DNA from: a virus
Taxonomy: Duplodnaviria > Heunggongvirae > Uroviricota > Caudoviricetes
Virus record (IMG/VR): IMGVR_UViG_2695420617_000001
Location: 1 to 6,892 of that record
Strand: one strand, 5' to 3'
Length of the DNA stretch: 6,892 bases
Every line of letters begins with the position of its first letter. The first letter of the stretch is position 1. The notes under the pieces are model-generated. The model was not told the DNA's origin. It did no database searches and saw only the letters and a program-made list of their open reading frames with translations. Made by a program: the position numbers and the translations under genes. Positions 1 through 6,892 of this stretch are shown one piece after another.

Positions 1-1461
1 ATTAGTAAGTGTCTTCGCCAGGAAGTCGAAAGAATCCTCGCGAGGCAATAACTTCAGGTCGTACTCACTCATTTGCTGATCAGAAAGCGGGGTATCGTAA
101 GTAGCAATGCCGTAGCGTGCATATTCATAATACGGGTCACCTTCATCAGGGCGCGGCAGAATTGCTTTGTTACCTTCAGGTATTGCGCCAGGGGCCGCCG
201 GACGCATTTGCAGGGCATATCGATATTCACCTACAGAGACTTCTGGTTCAGGCGAAGAGCTACCGGTATCCTCCGCTGGTTCAGGTTCGACGTTTTCCGG
301 TTTATGTTCTTCTGGTTGGACCAGGTATTCCGATACATTACCCGCTTTATAGGCTTTAAACAGCTTGCCGATCGCATCTGCCATGTCCACACCCTGTATG
401 GATTTAGCCTTGATCATGTACACGCTGCCATCCGAATCGGTTAACTGGATATACCCTTCGCCGTCCTCAATGAATTGCTTCATTGATGCACCATTACTGA
501 GCGTCACTTCCCCGTTCATATGCATACGATTTTTGATACTGGCAAGGCGATCCGTCATCGCGCGAGAGTGTCCACCAGTCGTCCCCGCAGGAGCAATGGT
601 ATCGCGCCCACCAGTGCGATTGAGCTGATCAATCTCCGTCTGCAAACGCTCATTCTCTTCATAAAGAGAATCCGCTTCCGATGCAACAGCGTTAATTTTC
701 TGCTCCAGATCTACCTTCTGCCCTTCTACCGCTGCCACCTGATCCACGAGGTCGCTCATGGCATCCTCTTTCTGGTCACTATCAGCCTGTAGTTGGGTTA
801 TTTCATCAACAAGGGCTTTTTTCTTCTTCTGCGCACGCTGAAATTTTGCCGAGTTTTTCTCTGCAAGGTTGGCAAGTTTCATGGTGACCTGCGCCAGCGT
901 CATATCACGTCCACTCATCGGAGCAACGGTGTGAGTAACGTCTTTTTTATTCAGTAAGAACTGGAAAGCAACCAGCGTATCGCTATTGGTGATCCGGTTT
1001 TCCGCTGTCGGGCTATGAAACAGAATGCTGATAGTCTGACCATCACTGAGCGGAATAATGGCTGGCAGGACCGGCAGCCCGTTAACGTTACGTGCCCGGC
1101 CAATTTCAGCACCGCCGATCGCGCGCGCGCCGCTCTGGGCCACATCCCCCGTTTTATCACTCCCCGCAGAGATTCCGGTACCATTCAGCTTCTGGTTCAA
1201 TGCCCGGACAAATGCCTGCATGGTCCGGTGTAACTGCAAACGAGTAGAACTAATCGCCTCCAGTAAATCCGTAGCACACCAGTGGATCGGCGTGTCATAG
1301 AAGAACGTAGCCTCGATTTCCTCCAGGGTGTTGGATTCCGTCATCAGATAGCGGTCCTCACCGGCCATTAATGCGCGATATTCATCATCAGTCACTGGCG
1401 GGGGAAGCACGTCAAGCCCAGGCTTGATCGTCACCCCTTTATTGATATTGAACTGTTCCAT
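1..1461 (-). CDS. Large structural/antirestriction-type protein, DarA-like (P1 dar operon); partial, C-terminal part lies beyond the window start
   Basis: Hand translation of the minus strand gives one uninterrupted frame from ATG (complement of 1459-1461) to position 1, about 487 codons, beginning MEQFNINKGVTIKPGLDVLPPPVTDDEYRALMAGEDRY. An AGGAA Shine-Dalgarno sits 7 nt upstream. It is missing from the ORF track only because no stop occurs inside the window. The many short plus-strand ORFs at 73-1300 are antisense shadows. It shares the motif TL..V....A.KNSAKFQ followed by a coiled-coil with the upstream 203-aa ORF. The DarA name rests on recalled P1 gene order and the Hdf paralogy, not on a search. 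Confidence 0.6.
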   Translation of the reverse strand, partial: MEQFNINKGVTIKPGLDVLPPPVTDDEYRALMAGEDRYLMTESNTLEEIEATFFYDTPIHWCATDLLEAISSTRLQLHRTMQAFVRALNQKLNGTGISAGSDKTGDVAQSGARAIGGAEIGRARNVNGLPVLPAIIPLSDGQTISILFHSPTAENRITNSDTLVAFQFLLNKKDVTHTVAPMSGRDMTLAQVTMKLANLAEKNSAKFQRAQKKKKALVDEITQLQADSDQKEDAMSDLVDQVAAVEGQKVDLEQKINAVASEADSLYEENERLQTEIDQLNRTGGRDTIAPAGTTGGHSRAMTDRLASIKNRMHMNGEVTLSNGASMKQFIEDGEGYIQLTDSDGSVYMIKAKSIQGVDMADAIGKLFKAYKAGNVSEYLVQPEEHKPENVEPEPAEDTGSSSPEPEVSVGEYRYALQMRPAAPGAIPEGNKAILPRPDEGDPYYEYARYGIATYDTPLSDQQMSEYDLKLLPREDSFDFLAKTLTN

Positions 1462-1462
1462 G

Positions 1463-2065
1463 TTAATTTCCTGCTTTCAGTTGCTTAAGACGGCGTTTGA
1501 GTTCGCCATTTCGGGCCTTTTCGTTATTGAGTCGGCCGGTATCCTTATCCAGCTTCGCCCGCAAATCAGTGATCTGCTGTTGATGGAAAGACACCGAGTT
1601 CTGCGCTGATTTATAAGCGGCAACCACCTGAGCATTCCGCTGTTTTGCCTCTTGCAGGCGCTGAAAGTTGGATTTTACTGCCGGTTTCTTGTCTACCGGA
1701 TTGGCAACACGTTTCGCTTTGGCGATCAGTGATTTCTGGAATTTTGCGGAGTTTTTGCGGGCCGCTTGCCCCATGACGGTACCAAGCGTCTTGATATCCG
1801 GCGACTGAGCGTTAGGAATAGCTTTTCCATTCAGCCTCACAGACGATATATCGCCAGTATCGTTTACCTGTATGGCAAGAATTTGTCCGTCGTTAAGAAC
1901 CAGCTTTGCGGTTTTAACTTTAACGCCATCTTTCGTTGTTGCGCGGTTGCTGGAGTCAACCTCAATTACCGTAACACCGGTTTTATTGATCGCCGCGATA
2001 AGGGATTTCAGCCCCTTTTCATTAACCTGGTCAAAATCGACCGTTGCATACTTATTTTTCGTCAT
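1463..2065 (-). CDS. Hdf-like protein (homolog of DarA fragment), paralogous to the downstream large ORF
   Basis: Track ORF 1463..2074 (-). I prefer the second ATG (2063-2065), which has AGGA 8 nt upstream; the first ATG at 2072-2074 has no SD. Stop TAA at 1463-1465 is 1 nt from the next gene's ATG (TAAcATG). Lysine-rich C-terminal coiled-coil. Shares KNSAKFQ and flanking residues with the large ORF at 1-1461. Confidence 0.6.
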   Translation of the reverse strand: MTKNKYATVDFDQVNEKGLKSLIAAINKTGVTVIEVDSSNRATTKDGVKVKTAKLVLNDGQILAIQVNDTGDISSVRLNGKAIPNAQSPDIKTLGTVMGQAARKNSAKFQKSLIAKAKRVANPVDKKPAVKSNFQRLQEAKQRNAQVVAAYKSAQNSVSFHQQQITDLRAKLDKDTGRLNNEKARNGELKRRLKQLKAGN

Positions 2066-2495
2066 CTGACACATCCTGTGCGAGATTTATTACGTAACTT
2101 CTGCGGATTTGCTGAGTAACAGGGAAAATCCGATACAACGGGTTAATGAACGAGTCGCCATGCGTAACCATGACGTTGAAATGCCACAGCCGTTCTCCTT
2201 TACCCATATATTCAGTGGGTATGTACAACCATTCACTGTTTTCGCCCTGTTCAGCCGACGTCAAACAACGTTGTTCGCCTTCAATCACTGTCGTTGGCTT
2301 CTGAACATCGCGGATCCAATATCTGACCGTTGCGCCGCGCAAAAACGGGAATTTAGACCGGTATTTGAACGGCACCCGGATGAAACCCGGTTTAATTTCC
2401 ACATCACCAAGTTCTAAATGCGTGATGTCCTTGCGTTTTAGCAAATAGCGATCGGCTAAGGCTAACGCAAGAGCGCATACACCCCAGCCAATCAT
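2052..2495 (-). CDS. Putative antiholin/lysis regulator (LydB-like), N-terminal signal-anchor
   Basis: 147-aa ORF with hydrophobic N-terminus MIGWGVCALALALA. Its ATG overlaps the stop of the upstream holin-like gene in an ATGA arrangement (2492-2495), indicating translational coupling. Assignment is by position after a holin and recalled P1 lydA-lydB order; no search done. Confidence 0.45.
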   Translation of the reverse strand: MIGWGVCALALALADRYLLKRKDITHLELGDVEIKPGFIRVPFKYRSKFPFLRGATVRYWIRDVQKPTTVIEGEQRCLTSAEQGENSEWLYIPTEYMGKGERLWHFNVMVTHGDSFINPLYRIFPVTQQIRRSYVINLAQDVSDDEK

Positions 2496-2821
2496 TTCCC
2501 ACCTCCCTTTTTCACCAAACTTGTAAGAACATTCAGAATGCTATCGATATTCACTCGTTTCATCCCTGAAATCACCTCATGACCGTTATTGCTGGCTATC
2601 GTTACCATTAAGTACGTAATTGATAACTCCCAGCCCTCGTGTTGCCCCAATAGGTACGCCACCGCGCCAGCTGTCACTGCAACAAAGATCTCCGTAACCA
2701 ATCCCAACAAATTGCCAGACTGGCGACCGTCTCGGACATCCATCAGGAACGTGCCTATCCCACCAATTACTGAAAGCAGGAGCGCAATAGCAACTGGAGC
2801 TAATTCCTGTGTGTCAAGCAC
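2492..2821 (-). CDS. Holin-like membrane protein (LydA-like)
   Basis: 109-aa ORF with GTG start (complement of 2819-2821) and a strong AGGAGG SD 6 nt upstream. Two to three predicted transmembrane segments (LAPVAIALLLSVIGGIGTFL, LLGLVTEIFVAVTAGAVAYLL) and a short charged C-terminal tail (KKGGGK), as is typical of holins. Confidence 0.6.
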   Translation of the reverse strand: MLDTQELAPVAIALLLSVIGGIGTFLMDVRDGRQSGNLLGLVTEIFVAVTAGAVAYLLGQHEGWELSITYLMVTIASNNGHEVISGMKRVNIDSILNVLTSLVKKGGGK

Positions 2822-2895
2822 AAGTTCCCTCCTACGTTGTCAGGAGGTAATGGTATGCAAAGTAACTTCTCAACCGGTTATGTTGCATAAGAGAC

Positions 2896-3159
2896 TTACC
2901 TATTCAACCGACTTTTGGAACCTTCAATAATAAGCCTGCTATTGGCGCTGAAAATAAGAACCATGCAGCTCTGAAGGCTTTCATTCATGTCCTTATATTC
3001 CGCGAGATACATGCCAATAAAGCCAGCAAGTACGGCGGAAATACATTCGGCCAGCAATTTCTTGCATGAGGACTCGTAACGGTTTTCACATAGCCCACTC
3101 AAATACGAATACACCCCACCAAGAAGGGATAACATCACGATATGTACATAAAATGTCAT
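2896..3159 (-). CDS. Small hypothetical membrane protein (87 aa), first gene of the minus-strand operon
   Basis: ORF with ATG at 3157-3159 and a weak AGGT SD. Two hydrophobic stretches (VHIVMLSLLGGVYSYLSGL, LLAECISAVLAGFIGMYLAEY). Same strand as the lysis/dar genes. Function unknown. Confidence 0.4.
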   Translation of the reverse strand: MTFYVHIVMLSLLGGVYSYLSGLCENRYESSCKKLLAECISAVLAGFIGMYLAEYKDMNESLQSCMVLIFSANSRLIIEGSKSRLNR

Positions 3160-3286
3160 TTTTTACCTATACAACAGTAAGTTGAACAACATTTGAGAAC
3201 GGTATGCACTTTGTGATTTCCACACACACTGGTTTTGTTAATTAAAACCTGTAGCTTGCAATAAATAACGATAGTGGGCAGAAAAT

Positions 3287-3472
3287 ATGCTAATAGGCTA
3301 TGTACGCATATAGACAAATGAACAAAACACAGCTATGCAGTGAAAAGCACTTGAAAGCGCAGGATGTGAGCTAATTTTTGCGAATAAGGCGAGCAGCAAA
3401 AAGGCTGGGCACCCTAGTTTAAAAAAGGTTCTGCGTATGCTTTCCAGAGGTGATACCCTAGTCTCGGACTAG
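3287..3472 (+). pseudogene. Decayed 5' remnant of a Cin/Gin-type serine invertase gene (two in-frame stops, 3' part deleted)
   Basis: Plus-strand translation from ATG 3287: MLIGYVRI*TNEQNTAMQ*KALESAGCELIFANKASSKKAGHPSLKKVLRMLSRGDTLV, then unrelated sequence. This aligns over about 59 codons with the intact invertase in this window (MQIGYIRVSTNDQNTDLQRNALNCAGCELIFEDKISGTKSARPGLKKLLRTLSEGDTLV), with TAG at codon 9 and TGA at codon 19. Homology ends at 3463, exactly at the left arm of a palindrome. Confidence 0.75.
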
Positions 3473-3474
3473 GG
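3456..3474. repeat. Perfect palindrome CCCTAGTC-tcg-GACTAGGG at the invertase-remnant breakpoint
   Basis: Arms 3456-3463 and 3467-3474 are exact reverse complements with a 3-nt spacer. The left arm is the last recognisable invertase codons (ccc tag tc = ..T L V). No flanking T-run on either strand, so it is not a typical intrinsic terminator. Confidence 0.7.
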
Positions 3475-3594
3475 ACAACATTTCGAGGACAGTTTTCATT
3501 AGCGGTCAGCAGGCGCTAGATACATCGAATTGATGTGCCGCGCGATAAATGTACCTATTCTATCAAGATAAATTACACCGACGCGGCATTAGAA

Positions 3595-4167
3595 TTACAG
3601 CTCAGATTGAGTTTGGCGCTTCTCTACAGGATGATAACGATAAATCGTCGATACACCGATATCGTAAATAATTGCCAACTGTTTCCTGCTGTAGCCATTT
3701 TCGATCAACCTCGCTATTTGCTCATGTTGTTCTTTTGTCAACTTCGGGCGACGTCCGCCAATGCGTCCCTGTTCGCGTGCAGCTGCCAGTCCGGCCAGTG
3801 TTCTCTCAACAATTAATTCACGTTCCATTTCTGCTAAAGCACCCATGACATGAAAAAAGAAACGCCCCATGGGTGTTGATGTGTCAATACTGTCTGTCAG
3901 ACTACGGAAATTAACACCTTTTTCCCGCAACTCCTCTATAAGCGTGATAAGGTGTTTCATACTTCTGCCAAGCCTATCCAGCTTCCAGACAACCAGCGTA
4001 TCTCCTTCTGATAACGTTCTGAGCAGCTTTTTCAAGCCTGGTCTGGCTGACTTTGTTCCGCTTATTTTATCTTCAAAAATCAGTTCACATCCTGCGCAGT
4101 TCAGTGCATTTCTTTGTAAATCTGTGTTTTGGTCATTTGTTGACACACGAATGTAGCCAATTTGCAT
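3595..4167 (-). CDS. Serine DNA invertase (site-specific recombinase, Pin/Min/Cin/Gin/Hin family)
   Basis: 190 aa from ATG (complement of 4165-4167), with GAGG SD about 9 nt upstream; the track's TTG at 4176 is probably not the start. Hallmark N-terminus MQIGYIRVSTNDQ with the catalytic serine context, then DTLVVWKLDRLGRS, MGRFFFHVMGALAEMERELIVERT, GRIGGRRPKL and a C-terminal helix-turn-helix (GYSRKQLAIIYDIGVSTIYR). Closest by memory to the Pin/Min subfamily. Confidence 0.93.
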   Translation of the reverse strand: MQIGYIRVSTNDQNTDLQRNALNCAGCELIFEDKISGTKSARPGLKKLLRTLSEGDTLVVWKLDRLGRSMKHLITLIEELREKGVNFRSLTDSIDTSTPMGRFFFHVMGALAEMERELIVERTLAGLAAAREQGRIGGRRPKLTKEQHEQIARLIENGYSRKQLAIIYDIGVSTIYRYHPVEKRQTQSEL

Positions 4168-4221
4168 GAAAAACAACCTCTTTGTTTAGTTAAAAATACA
4201 TCGTTGGTATAGGTAGGGATT

Positions 4222-4247
4222 AAGACTAAAACGTTGGTTTGGGGGAA
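4222..4247 (+). other. Invertase crossover site 1 (26 bp: 12-bp half-sites flanking a 2-bp core), boundary site next to the invertase gene
   Basis: AAGACTAAAACG-TT-GGTTTGGGGGAA. The inner AAAACG/xx/GGTTT pattern matches hix/gix/cix-type sites (for example hixL TTCTTGAAAACC-AA-GGTTTTTGATAA). It lies about 55 bp upstream of the invertase start. Confidence 0.7.
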
Positions 4248-4706
4248 GGCTCAGCATTGCCTGTTGGCGTGCCTGTTCCGTGGCCCTCAGCCACTCCGCC
4301 AACGGGGTGGCTGAAATGCAATGGTGCAGCATTTTCTTCTGAAAAGTACCCAAATCTGGCAAAGGCTTACCCTACTAATAAATTGCCGGATCTACGGGGC
4401 GAATTTATTCGCGGCTGGGATGACGGGCGGGGGATTGACTCTGGCCGTAATTTATTATCTGCACAGAATGATGCAATTCAGAATATTGTTGGTTCTTTCG
4501 GGCGTACTCAGCTTTTTAGAGATGTACTTAGTTCAGGGCCATTTAGTCAACATGGTCAAGTATTATCTACAGGCCTAAAGGAAACGGAAATTATTGAGGG
4601 TTATGGCTCTTATAACTGGACATTCGACGCCTCTCGCTCAGTTCGTACAGCATCTGAAACCCGTCCCCGTAATATTGCATTTAATTACATCGTAAGGGCG
4701 GCATAA
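4236..4706 (+). CDS. Tail fibre C-terminal cassette A (start-codon-less gene segment, silent in this configuration)
   Basis: Open frame from the right half of site 1 to TAA 4704-4706: GLGEGSALPVGVPVPWPSATPPTGWLKCNGAAFSSEKYPNLAKAYPTNKLPDLRGEFIRGWDDGRG, a unique core, then ETRPRNIAFNYIVRAA. The collar-like LPDLRGEFIRGWDDGRG motif is typical of phage tail fibres. No ATG or RBS; the track's M is a TTG. Confidence 0.8.
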   Translation, partial: GLGEGSALPVGVPVPWPSATPPTGWLKCNGAAFSSEKYPNLAKAYPTNKLPDLRGEFIRGWDDGRGIDSGRNLLSAQNDAIQNIVGSFGRTQLFRDVLSSGPFSQHGQVLSTGLKETEIIEGYGSYNWTFDASRSVRTASETRPRNIAFNYIVRAA

Positions 4707-4725
4707 AAACGTTGGTTTAGGGGAA
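4700..4725 (+). other. Invertase crossover site 2
   Basis: GGCATAAAAACG-TT-GGTTTAGGGGAA, same orientation as site 1. The left half-site contains the TAA stop of cassette A. Confidence 0.75.
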
Positions 4726-5175
4726 GGCTCGGCGCTGCCCGTTGGCGTGCCTGTTCCGTGGCCCTCCGCCACACCACCAACGGGGTGGCTGAAATGTAAC
4801 GGAGCAGCATTTTCTTCTGAAAAGTACCCAAATCTGGCAAAGGTTTACCCAACGTTAAAATTACCTGATTTACGCGGTGAGTTTATCCGTGGTTGGGATG
4901 ATGGGCGAGGTGTGGATGCGGGAAGGGTCATCTTAAGCATACAGGGGTGGTTAACAGGAAGTCATTATCATAATATTCGGTCATGGGACGCGTGGGATAA
5001 CACGGTATTGGTGCCAAATGACAGAGGGGGGGATAGTCTGTTGTCGACAGATAACGCCGTCCAAGAAGGAGCGATTAATGGTAAATTTACCAGTCAATAC
5101 AGAACGGAGTTATCTGGGGGGAATGAAACCCGCCCACGTAACATTGCCTTCAATTATATTGTGAGAGCAGCATAA
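4714..5175 (+). CDS. Tail fibre C-terminal cassette B (start-codon-less), translationally coupled to tfa
   Basis: The frame is open from site 2 (GLGEGSALPVGVPVPWPSATPPTGWLKCNG...); the track begins at an internal GTG at 4747. Unique core WLTGSHYHNIRSWDAWDNTVLVPNDRGGDSLLSTDNAVQEG. Ends ETRPRNIAFNYIVRAA with TAA overlapping the tfa ATG (TAATG at 5173-5177). Confidence 0.8.
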   Translation, partial: GLGEGSALPVGVPVPWPSATPPTGWLKCNGAAFSSEKYPNLAKVYPTLKLPDLRGEFIRGWDDGRGVDAGRVILSIQGWLTGSHYHNIRSWDAWDNTVLVPNDRGGDSLLSTDNAVQEGAINGKFTSQYRTELSGGNETRPRNIAFNYIVRAA

Positions 5176-5786
5176 TGGATAATGCGATATTAAATAGCGA
5201 ACTTATAGCCATACAGGCAGGAAACATTATCGTTTATAACTATGATGGTGGTAATCGGGAATATATTTCTGCATCAACTGAATATCTTGCTGTTGGCGTT
5301 GGTATTCCGGCAAATTCTTGTTTGGATGCTCCAGGCTCACATAAAGCAGGTTATGCGATTCTCCGTTCAGAGGATTTAAGTTCATGGGAGTATGTGCCAG
5401 ATCATCGTGGCGAAACTGTCTATAGCATTGACACTGGGAATCCCGAAGAAATCACGGTGTTGGGTGACTATCCGGAAAATACAACCACTATCGCCCCGCT
5501 AACACCATACGACAAATGGGATGGAGAGAAATGGGTGGTTGATACTGAGGCTCAACATAGTGCAGCTGTAGAGGCAGCAGAAACAAAACGTCAGTCATTG
5601 ATTGATACTGCGATGGATTCCATTAGTCTGATTCAGTTGAAATTACGGGCTGGACGGAAGTTGACGCAGGCAGAAACCACGCAGCTTAACTCCGTGCTAG
5701 ATTATATAGACGAGCTGAACGCGATGGATTTAACCACGGCACCAGATCTCAACTGGCCTGAAAAACAACTTTCTACAGCCAGTTGA
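5175..5786 (+). CDS. tfa: Tail fibre assembly protein (Tfa; lambda Tfa / Mu U family chaperone)
   Basis: 203 aa. Recalled lambda Tfa motifs match: IPANS..D.AP, (E/P)DHRG(K/E)TVY, Y(Q/D)KW(N/D)G..WV.DTEA and C-terminal T(S/T)APD(I/L)(E/N)WP. TAATG overlap with cassette B. Confidence 0.9.
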   Translation: MDNAILNSELIAIQAGNIIVYNYDGGNREYISASTEYLAVGVGIPANSCLDAPGSHKAGYAILRSEDLSSWEYVPDHRGETVYSIDTGNPEEITVLGDYPENTTTIAPLTPYDKWDGEKWVVDTEAQHSAAVEAAETKRQSLIDTAMDSISLIQLKLRAGRKLTQAETTQLNSVLDYIDELNAMDLTTAPDLNWPEKQLSTAS

Positions 5787-5791
5787 TATAA

Positions 5792-6298
5792 TTAATCCGC
5801 CCTCACAATATAATTAAATGCAATATTACGAGGGCGGGTTTCTGTACCTACATTTCCACTAATTTCACCATAACGTTTAACACTACGAGAGCTAATAGCT
5901 CGTAGTGAGGAAGGCACCTTATGACCGGGTTCGTCCGTTTTAACTATTCCCCCGTCACCGTATGTAGCTAGTATTCCTGGATTTACGCCTTCCCGTGCAC
6001 TTCCTGCGGCGAGTCCGTCCCCTGTCCATAATTCCATATAGTGTGCATGGTCCAAAATTGTGTGTGGCTGCCAATTAAGCAAAGCGCGGCCAGCATCCAC
6101 CCCGCGCCCATCATCCCAGCCGCGAATAAATTCTCCCCGTAAATCCGGTAATTTATTGGTGGGGTAGGCTTTTGCCAGTTTGGGATACATTTCAGAAGAA
6201 AATGCTGCACCATTGCATTTCAGCCAGCCCGTTGGTGGTGTTTCTAAGGGCCACGGAACGGGCACGCCAACGGGCAATGCTGAGCCTTCCCCCAAACC
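5792..6298 (-). CDS. Tail fibre C-terminal cassette C (start-codon-less, inverted orientation)
   Basis: Minus-strand frame from site 3 to stop (complement of 5792-5794): GEGSALPVGVPVPWPLETPPTGWLKCNGAAFSSEMYPKLAKAYPTNKLPDLRGEFIRGWDDGRG, a unique core, then ETRPRNIAFNYIVRAD. Its stop is 5 bp from the tfa stop (convergent). Confidence 0.8.
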   Translation of the reverse strand, partial: GLGEGSALPVGVPVPWPLETPPTGWLKCNGAAFSSEMYPKLAKAYPTNKLPDLRGEFIRGWDDGRGVDAGRALLNWQPHTILDHAHYMELWTGDGLAAGSAREGVNPGILATYGDGGIVKTDEPGHKVPSSLRAISSRSVKRYGEISGNVGTETRPRNIAFNYIVRAD

Positions 6299-6312
6299 AA
6301 CGTTTTTATGCC
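6287..6312 (-). other. Invertase crossover site 3 (inverted relative to sites 1 and 2)
   Basis: Plus strand TTCCCCCAAACC-AA-CGTTTTTATGCC, which is the reverse complement of GGCATAAAAACG-TT-GGTTTGGGGGAA. It contains the stop codon of cassette D. Confidence 0.75.
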
Positions 6313-6785
6313 GCCCTTACGATGTAATTAAATGCGATATTTCGTGGACGGGTTTCACTCCCGCCAGTATTACCAATACTCCCTCGAGAATGAAGTGTCG
6401 GTGATGGAATCAAATTCCCTCCTGTATTTGAGGCATCAAGCCCCCGTCCTTGTGTGTATGTTTTTTTGAAAATTGTCGCCAGCTCCCATTCATCTTTTGT
6501 GTCGTAACCATCATTGGCTACAACAATATGTCGGTGCTTTTCCAGCATTCCTGTCTGAATGCTCAATAAAGCACGTCCTGTATCAATGCCGCGTCCATCA
6601 TCCCAGCCACGAATAAACTCACCGCGTAAATCAGGTAATTTTAACGTTGGGTAAGCCTTTGCCAGATTTGGGTACTTTTCAGAAGAAAATGCTGCACCAT
6701 TGCATTTCAGCCAGCCTGTTGGCGGAGTGGCTGAAGGCCACGGAACAGGGACACCAACAGGTAATGCAGAGCCTTCTCCCAAACC
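6306..6785 (-). CDS. Tail fibre C-terminal cassette D (start-codon-less, inverted orientation)
   Basis: Minus-strand frame from site 4 to stop (complement of 6306-6308). Same conserved N-module (..AKAYPTLKLPDLRGEFIRGWDDGRG), unique core, then ETRPRNIAFNYIVRAA. Confidence 0.8.
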   Translation of the reverse strand, partial: GLGEGSALPVGVPVPWPSATPPTGWLKCNGAAFSSEKYPNLAKAYPTLKLPDLRGEFIRGWDDGRGIDTGRALLSIQTGMLEKHRHIVVANDGYDTKDEWELATIFKKTYTQGRGLDASNTGGNLIPSPTLHSRGSIGNTGGSETRPRNIAFNYIVRAA

Positions 6786-6799
6786 AACGTTTTTATGCC
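6774..6799 (-). other. Invertase crossover site 4 (inverted relative to sites 1 and 2)
   Basis: Plus strand TTCTCCCAAACC-AA-CGTTTTTATGCC. It contains the stop codon of the partial cassette E. Confidence 0.75.
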
Positions 6800-6803
6800 G
6801 CCC

Positions 6804-6892
6804 TTACGATATAATTAAACGCAATGTTACGAGGACGAATGGTTACATAATTAACCCCATCACCTCGTGAAGGCCCTGCAAATGAAAAACGG
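6804..6892 (-). CDS. Tail fibre C-terminal cassette E, 3' end only (continues beyond the window end)
   Basis: Minus-strand translation of 6892..6804 gives ..RFSFAGPSRGDGVNYVTIRPRNIAFNYIVRAA then stop (complement of 6804-6806). It has the shared C-terminal motif but a different preceding sequence, so it is a fifth distinct cassette. Confidence 0.65.

Follow-up and report, generated by a model that had tools for sequence, protein, structure and literature searches.

Tail-fibre cassettes joined through stop-bearing 26-bp crossover sites: a probable Min-type multiple DNA-inversion region in a P1-like phage-plasmid

Introduction

How can tail-fibre cassettes be exchanged without loss of the reading frame when each of them ends inside the recombination site that opens the next one? 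This question is raised by a stretch of 6,892 nucleotides of a tailed virus (positions 1 to 6,892 of the IMG/VR record IMGVR_UViG_2695420617_000001, Caudoviricetes), hereafter called the window, in which a serine DNA invertase gene is followed by five tail-fibre tip cassettes and four 26-bp crossover sites. A preliminary description, made from the letters of this DNA, had proposed that the cassettes are stacked tail to head across the sites and that strand exchange at the central TT would splice a new C-terminal module in frame. Our analysis leads us to consider the window, with high confidence, as the invertase-proximal part of a Min-type multiple DNA-inversion region, that is a serine-invertase shufflon, carried by a P1/p15B-like phage-plasmid.

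Sites, frames, stops, protein domains, in-frame fusions and natural isomers with breakpoints at the sites were all seen directly, in the window and in a set of related loci. The latter comprises nine plasmid loci (L001-L008 and L010), which were fetched and mapped, and a chromosomal prophage locus, L011. IS26 truncates L001, and the fetched stretch ends before the expression site of L003; the whole layout can be followed in seven loci. Together, the window and the nine plasmid loci provide 72 site instances.

Results

Crossover sites, stop codons and frames

The four sites of the window are built on one plan, 12 bp, a TT core and 12 bp, and two of them lie on each strand. Site 1 (4222-4247, plus strand; AAGACTAAAACG TT GGTTTGGGGGAA) is the boundary site on the invertase side. 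Site 2 (4700-4725, plus strand; GGCATAAAAACG TT GGTTTAGGGGAA) contains the stop of cassette A (TAA, 4704-4706), site 3 (6287-6312, minus strand; GGCATAAAAACG TT GGTTTGGGGGAA) that of cassette D (TAA, 6308-6306) and site 4 (6774-6799, minus strand; GGCATAAAAACG TT GGTTTGGGAGAA) that of cassette E (TAA, 6795-6793). The 26-mer GGCATAAAAACGTTGGTTTGGGGGAA is found at site 3 without mismatch and at sites 2 and 4 with one mismatch each, and was not matched once in 200 shuffles. All four sites, site 1 included, contain an exact copy of the inner 12-mer AAACGTTGGTTT, for a chance expectation of 0.04 matches.

In sites 2, 3 and 4, TAA occupies positions 5-7 of the left half, where the open reading frames of the upstream cassettes stop, as the preliminary description had it. 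Its reading of the right half as the opening of the next cassette is also borne out: GGT TTR GGR GAA, followed by GGC, gives G-L-G-E-G in the downstream cassette frame. On the other hand, it had given a single right half for sites 2, 3 and 4, whereas sites 2 and 4 differ from it by one base each, and the form common to the four is GGTTT[AG]GG[AG]GAA. The idea that cassettes are joined without intergenic space needs to be amended in the same way. The stop does lie within the site, but 7 nt (AAACG and the TT core) separate it from the next GGT, and successive cassettes are thereby offset by +1. As to tail-to-head stacking, it holds from A to B, from E to D and from D to C, but B precedes an assembly gene and C has no 3′ site.

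Site 1 stands apart by its left half, in which the outer six bases are divergent and the inner AAAACG is common to the other sites, again as first described. Its role as a boundary beside the invertase is supported by the related loci: this left half is invariant in 10 out of 10 copies (window and nine related loci), and the cassette to its right varies from locus to locus (V00, V01, V05, V09 or V11). The TAA of site 1, at positions 6-8, falls in the downstream frame, so that a cassette parked at the boundary site is closed.

The expression site in related plasmids

Across the 72 site instances, the core is TT without exception, the right half is always GGTTT[AG]GG[AG]GAA and the inner left half is either AAAACG or ATTACC. 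Flanking codons vary while the core and the inner half-sites stay invariant. Left positions 5-7 of the internal sites hold TAA or TGA, the stop of the upstream cassette, everywhere but in one frameshifted copy of L005. The relatives possess 5-13 sites per locus, and at least 14 cassette types occur over the ten loci.

The seven complete loci share a layout, in which the invertase and the boundary site come first. Then follow between one and five cassettes, V01 together with the assembly gene, and a terminal cassette in converging orientation. The layout continues with one to eleven more cassettes and ends with an expression site located within a long tail-fibre gene. This site reads TTCTT[AG]ATTACC TT GGTTT[AG]GGGGAA in L002, L004-L008 and L010. 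The constant part of the tail-fibre gene carries Pfam Phage_fiber_2 repeats and the whole gene encodes 493-1,007 aa in the different plasmids. At the expression site the junction reads ..SIQSVL(D/N)YL|GLGEG.., and the core TT occupies codon positions 2-3, a phase found in every cassette. Since the phase is common to the expression site and the cassettes, exchange at the core always gives an in-frame fusion. Indeed, seven types (V01, V02, V03, V07, V08, V10 and V13) are fused in frame at this one junction in different plasmids. The proposal that exchange at the TT core splices C-terminal modules in frame is thus sustained by natural fusions, but solely at the expression site, which like the constant part lies outside the window; all five window cassettes are therefore silent. 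In addition, all four left halves of the window carry a stop, so exchange among these sites would merely reorder silent cassettes.

Public records annotate coding sequences in the cassettes, and mechanical open reading frames with TTG or GTG starts can be drawn there. One could accordingly see each cassette as an independent small expressed gene (a ‘phage tail protein’ in the PGAP annotation) and the repeats as translation-coupling or regulatory elements. However, the putative starts are the Leu codon of GLGEG or an internal Val codon, the preceding ..AAAACGTTGG read by eye contains no AGGAGG-like ribosome-binding motif, and a stop in the same frame lies immediately upstream. The very same sequences form the in-frame C-terminus of the long tail-fibre genes in other isomers, and a Collar tip devoid of fibre shaft would have no evident way of attachment to the virion. 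We regard this explanation as extremely unlikely, and the cassettes as silent modules of an inversion array.

Some features of these loci deserve mention in their own right. The left half of the expression site, TTCTT[AG]ATTACC, also has TAA or TGA at positions 5-7, out of the frame of the constant part (L002 17146-17171; L004 11113-11138). T-R-A at these positions may then be a feature of the half-site, used by the cassettes as a stop. Phage_fiber_2 repeat stretches were matched three times in L002 (16726-18207) and 12 times in L004 (10645-13542), so the constant part also grows and shrinks between plasmids, as in L002, L004 and L006 (16101-19124). In L006 (NZ_CP196102.1, 9705-16624), which has thirteen sites, V07, V08 and V11 are each present twice, either by true duplication in the array or by mis-assembly of a mix of isomers. 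L005 (NZ_JCBKJQ010000002.1, 10195-13661) contains several frameshifted cassettes annotated as pseudogenes; sequencing error or decay of silent copies could be the origin of the frameshifts.

Natural isomers and the position of exchange

No record with the exact arrangement of the window was found, the best coverage being 90% among plasmids and 86% among E. coli genomes, as is expected of a shuffled region. Across the nine plasmid loci, cassettes occupy differing positions and orientations. The most informative relative is L010, the S. Typhi plasmid ph681355 (CP083412.1), which has seven sites. It is 99.5% identical to window positions 1-4922 in the same orientation, and 100.000% identical to positions 4712-6820 over 2,109 bp, in inverted orientation. 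The first core base of site 2 (4712) is also the first base of the inverted block, which abuts the left half of the expression site in L010. If its insertion (see below) is ignored, the L010 order is boundary, V00, V05, V09, V07, V03, V02-tfa-V01, constant part. One inversion between the V00/V05 site and the expression site converts it into the order of the window: boundary, V00, V01-tfa-V02, V03, V07 and so on. A second junction is offered by L004, which is 99.8% identical over 4662-6787, up to the last core base of site 4; beyond this core, L004 has the left half of the expression site. Natural isomers of near-identical plasmids thus indicate, indirectly, that inversions between the sites do occur.

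The ph681355 crossover is bounded to 55 bp (4712-4766), the left bound falling exactly at the core. Another estimate comes from polymorphic positions in the sites. All four combinations of the alleles at left position 12 and right position 6 are found, which places exchange within the 7 bp TTGGTTT, although recurrent mutation could blur this picture. The check suggested at the outset, to map recombinant junctions, therefore succeeds in part when applied to natural isomers: both intervals hold the core, but the dinucleotide itself is not singled out. Cleavage at the TT would be in keeping with the known chemistry of Hin, Gin and Cin.

The insertion in L010 is an ISEcp1-blaCTX-M-15 unit at about 6641-9690 (window 6815-6820). 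It interrupts the silent V07 at a distance of 21 nt from a crossover site and is accompanied by a duplication of 5 bp (TTTAA). Being inserted in V07, the ISEcp1-blaCTX-M-15 unit sits inside the invertible region. The paper describing ph681355 mentions neither tail fibres nor inversion.

Homologous recombination in the array

Could the 26-mers be mere joints of tandem paralogous tail-fibre genes, shuffled by RecA-type recombination in a 5′ box of about 220 nt and a 3′ box of about 50 nt? The sites are indeed flanked by conserved boxes (205-283 nt, 84-89% identity), and several observations weigh against an array shaped by the invertase only. The conserved 5′ region of the cassettes, of about 220 nt (window 4248-4450, 4726-4922, 6087-6286 and 6565-6773; variants such as GGCTCAGCAT, GGCTCGGCGC and GGCTCTGCAC), is mosaic and unlinked to cassette type, which suggests gene conversion among cassettes. 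The terminal cassette also differs by lineage, being V02 in the window, L004 and L010, and V04 in L001, L002, L003, L005, L007 and L008. The ..VRAD* end and its flank (window 5792-5842) are kept in all nine of these; the terminal cassette of L006 is also V04, but ends ..VRAA. This swap of V02 and V04 suggests that homologous exchange took place in the conserved 3′ box, rather than a site-specific event. Homologous exchange clearly acts on the array as well.

To the same side of the balance belong the right bound of the ph681355 crossover, which lies 41 nt beyond the site, the two cassettes having identical 5′ ends in this stretch, and the width of this best junction interval; formally, homologous recombination within 4712-4766 could still produce such a junction. 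Moreover, the dyad symmetry of the sites is weak (5-6 of the 12 positions, 5 of 12 for the internal sites), and expression is deduced from the relatives. Finally, the recombinational (Fis-dependent) enhancer is a prediction by homology. It is assigned to 4078-4149 on the minus strand, nt 19-90 of the invertase gene, with 58 of 72 positions identical to the enhancer annotated in P1 cin, whose place in the gene is the same.

The arguments in the opposite direction appear stronger to us. An intact Gin-like invertase adjoins the array, and the core and inner half-sites are kept in every instance amid variable codons. The sites match the cix sites of P1 and the family consensus. Homology breaks exactly at the boundary between left half and core at two independent junctions, and the four allele combinations place exchange in a few base pairs around the core. 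The array contains oppositely oriented blocks, as would result from inversions. Lastly, a three-repeat locus in a P2-like prophage of E2348/69, which fits L011, flips in clonal cultures. We thus judge it highly unlikely that RecA-type recombination explains the sites, and retain a Min-type inversion array on which homologous exchange is superimposed.

Invertase, cassettes and neighbouring genes

The invertase gene (3595-4167, minus strand), of the min type, encodes 190 aa and has its 5′ end toward the cassette array. The product contains the Pfam domains Resolvase (2e-51) and HTH_7 (3e-15) and matches the PDB ‘DNA-invertase’ chains 4m6f and 3uj3 over residues 1-185 (4e-92). It is identical to UniRef Q05517_ECOLX ‘DNA-invertase’, just as the product of the assembly gene is identical to TFAB_ECOLX ‘Tail fiber assembly protein homolog’; we take both to be p15B entries.

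The general outline, with numerous sites and a constant gene that can receive various C-terminal cassettes, resembles that of an R64-type shufflon with a tyrosine recombinase (Rci or Rin type), and one might also think of another device such as a diversity-generating retroelement. Yet the sole recombinase belongs to the serine resolvase/invertase family and the 12-2-12 sites have the architecture of the Din family. No reverse transcriptase or tyrosine recombinase open reading frame is apparent in the window, where the Pfam scan covered the open reading frames in 3595-6785, and the flanking genes are annotated in related records as homologues of darA, hdf/odaE, lydB, lydA and lydC. A tyrosine recombinase or retroelement device can in practice be dismissed, and the serine invertase is retained as the agent of the Min-type array.

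Cassette A (type V00; 4236-4706, plus strand) extends from the GGT of site 1 to the TAA within site 2 and contains a Collar domain (Pfam, 3e-15). Its type is also found in L002, L003, L004, L005, L007 and L010, at other positions and orientations. Cassette B (type V01; 4714-5175, plus strand) has a Collar domain (5e-15) and a weak S_tail_recep_bd match. It resembles the tips of T4 gp12 and gp37, its PDB matches being a short tail fibre (9cuy, 1.6e-17) and T4 gp37 (2xgf, 4e-14). In L010, type V01 is the one joined to the constant part. The tail fibre assembly (chaperone) gene follows directly (5175-5786, plus strand; Pfam Caudo_TAP, 3e-30), its ATG overlapping the stop of cassette B in a TAATG at 5173-5177. 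Cassette C (type V02; 5792-6298, minus strand; Collar, 7e-15) is the terminal cassette, with the ..VRAD* end and no 3′ site; it converges on the assembly gene and ends 5 nt from the stop of that gene. Cassette D (type V03; 6306-6785, minus strand; Collar, 2e-15) belongs to a type fused in frame to the constant part in L004. Of cassette E (type V07; 6793-6892, minus strand), only the 3′ end is present: its translation ..FSFAGPSRGDGVNYVTIRPRNIAFNYIVRAA* matches V07 and window 6815-6892 is 100% identical to the 3′ end of V07 in L010. As cassette E is incomplete at the window end, the array must extend past 6892.

In the window and in all related loci there is a single assembly gene for 4-12 cassettes, always directly after V01, and in most isomers its direction is away from the tail-fibre promoter. 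The other tips may do without it, or else its expression has another route.

A second invertase gene, cin-like, has left a decayed 5′ fragment (3286-3480, plus strand) in the interval from lydC to the intact invertase. This fragment has high identity to the 5′ end of P1 cin, yet is interrupted by six in-frame stops. In a megablast against E. coli genomes, 422 of its 428 matching places were on plasmids and six on chromosomes. This distribution neither confirms nor refutes a pin-like (e14 pin) nature of the fragment, which presumably is the ‘psi-min’ of p15B. Further left, the window consists of the darA-hdf-lydB-lydA-lydC block of P1-like phages, with about 95% identity to P1. Altogether 637 plasmid records match the window, mainly non-mobilizable E. 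coli plasmids.

Discussion

A model of cassette switching

Our results are consistent with the following scheme, in which we infer the core chemistry, the dependence on Fis and enhancer, and the effect on host range. By analogy with the homologous Hin, Gin and Cin systems, the Gin/Cin-like serine invertase would act at the 26-bp sites, one dimer binding each site. Two sites in inverted orientation would pair, joined by the enhancer that lies near the 5′ end of the invertase gene and to which Fis would be bound. At the core, both duplexes would then be cut with a 2-nt stagger, one pair of subunits would turn by 180 degrees and the ends would be rejoined. With an asymmetric TT core, only inverted pairs should be religated, so the numerous sites in the same orientation would not delete the array.

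The unit exchanged would be the module delimited by two cores. Such a module opens with the right half-site, continues with a Collar-domain tail-fibre tip of about 143-178 aa and finishes with the left half of the next site, from which it takes its final Ala codon and its stop (G GCA TAA AAACG). Only the cassette directly after the expression site would be translated, and translation would end within the next site. The following cassette, 7 nt farther, in the +1 frame and without start codon, would thus stay silent. This arrangement would answer the question raised above: the stop inside each site would close the expressed cassette, and the common phase of the core would keep the fusion in frame. 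Successive inversions would permute the order and orientation of the cassettes and would thereby give the phage another receptor-binding tip and another host range.

Significance

The tail-fibre tip switch itself is an already known Min-type system, and the understanding of its mechanism is unchanged by the present work. One could go a step further and imagine the core-to-core module as a standard joint through which tip cassettes could be acquired, duplicated and exchanged between P1-like and P2-like replicons, in other words an open library similar to that of integrons. This notion, which we consider rather unlikely, is based on the 5-13 sites per locus, the 14 or more types in ten loci, the duplicates of L006 and the cassettes common to plasmids and prophages. 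Alternatively, arrays would grow by ordinary homologous recombination in the conserved boxes only.

The switch would set the receptor-binding tip of a P1-like phage-plasmid and hence which bacteria it infects. P1-like phage-plasmids are common and carry resistance genes such as blaCTX-M-15 and mcr-1. There is also a practical side: annotation routinely mistakes silent cassettes for independent ‘phage tail protein’ genes, and each assembly represents one arbitrary isomer of the array. To know which gene is expressed, one has to look at the cassette that occupies the expression site.

Comparison with known systems

The R64 (Rci) shufflon and the Rin shufflon of Bifidobacterium phages obey the same logic, with a constant 5′ part, alternative 3′ cassettes, short sites and multiple inversions. 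They employ tyrosine recombinases and other sites (11-bp rix; sfx), in contrast to the serine invertase and 26-bp sites found here. Membership in the R64-type shufflon family is rejected on the ground that the recombinase is of the serine resolvase/invertase family.

Two features of the Din family are present. The recombinase is a serine enzyme of about 190 aa, with a resolvase catalytic domain at the N-terminus and a helix-turn-helix at the C-terminus, and the 26-bp sites, some of them in inverted orientation, consist of two imperfectly symmetric 12-bp halves about a 2-bp core. The window sites closely resemble the published Din-family consensus as well as the EC958 Phi2 sites.

With P1 Cin and Mu Gin, the window and its relatives share the invertase family, a position in the 5′ part of the invertase gene for the enhancer, here a predicted one, and a constant Sc part joined to variable parts at a site inside the tail-fibre gene. 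In the case of P1, whose crossover points are annotated in its record, the 26-bp plan, the TT core and the GGTTTA.. right half are also common. Alignment with P1 cixL (CAATCCTAAACC TT GGTTTAAGAGAA) and cixR (TTATCCAATACC TT GGTTTAAGAGAA), a check proposed in the preliminary description, shows the core and most of the right half in common with the window sites. Moreover, the stop codon of cin likewise overlaps cixL. In P1 and Mu there are two sites and a single invertible segment, with a choice of two tips that each have their own assembly gene, whereas in the window the cassettes are stacked, the sites are numerous and occur in both orientations, and the assembly gene is single. The window invertase gene is also opposite in orientation to P1 cin, and a decayed cin-like fragment remains at the original position.

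Another related system is that of the P2-like prophage of EPEC E2348/69. L011 contains three cassettes of the same family, with the same assembly gene, and three sites of the same sequences. One of these is the boundary site, another an internal site in which TGA occupies left positions 5-7, and the remaining one the expression site, TTCTTGATTACC TT GGTTTGGGGGAA. Goldberg et al. 2014 (PMC4272514) found by sequencing and PCR four coexisting isomers of a three-repeat locus in a P2-like prophage of E2348/69. The matching description suggests that this locus is L011. It differs from the window by its chromosomal location in a P2-like prophage and by its three cassettes only. In a recent study, isoforms of a similar gin-dependent shufflon were locked and tied to receptor use.

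The closest known system is Min of p15B. This multiple DNA-inversion system of the E. coli 15T- plasmid was described by Sandmeier, Iida, Arber and colleagues in 1990-1992, and reportedly has six sites in 3.5 kb and 240 isomers. The comparison was made through the cross-references of the P1 GenBank record to X62121, the p15B min region. Window 3198-3459 is 89.4% identical to P1 31570-31832 with one gap, the value that the P1 record gives for p15B nt 7147-7408. Similarly, window 4143-4073 is 83.1% identical to P1 31684-31754 without gaps, the value given for p15B nt 6463-6533. Two more P1 segments match the p15B values (84% without gaps; 99-100%), and the fixed flank is collinear with p15B, the window and p15B coordinates adding up to 10606 at four landmarks. 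Secondary literature presents Min of p15B as a serine-invertase shufflon with several sites and variable tail fibres.

The window and p15B Min have in common lydA, lydC, the decayed invertase fragment, the invertase, the crossover sites, alternative 3′ tail-fibre parts and one assembly gene. They differ in the number of sites, reportedly six in p15B, seven in ph681355 as the closest relative of the window, and anything within the range given above in the other relatives. The Min type is further recognized by more than two sites in both orientations, of which the window has four and its full relatives more, and by the succession lydA, lydC, decayed invertase fragment and min in a P1-like backbone. 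A further hallmark, a constant 5′ tail-fibre part that ends at a crossover site and is fused there to alternative 3′ parts, is displayed by L002, L004-L008 and L010.

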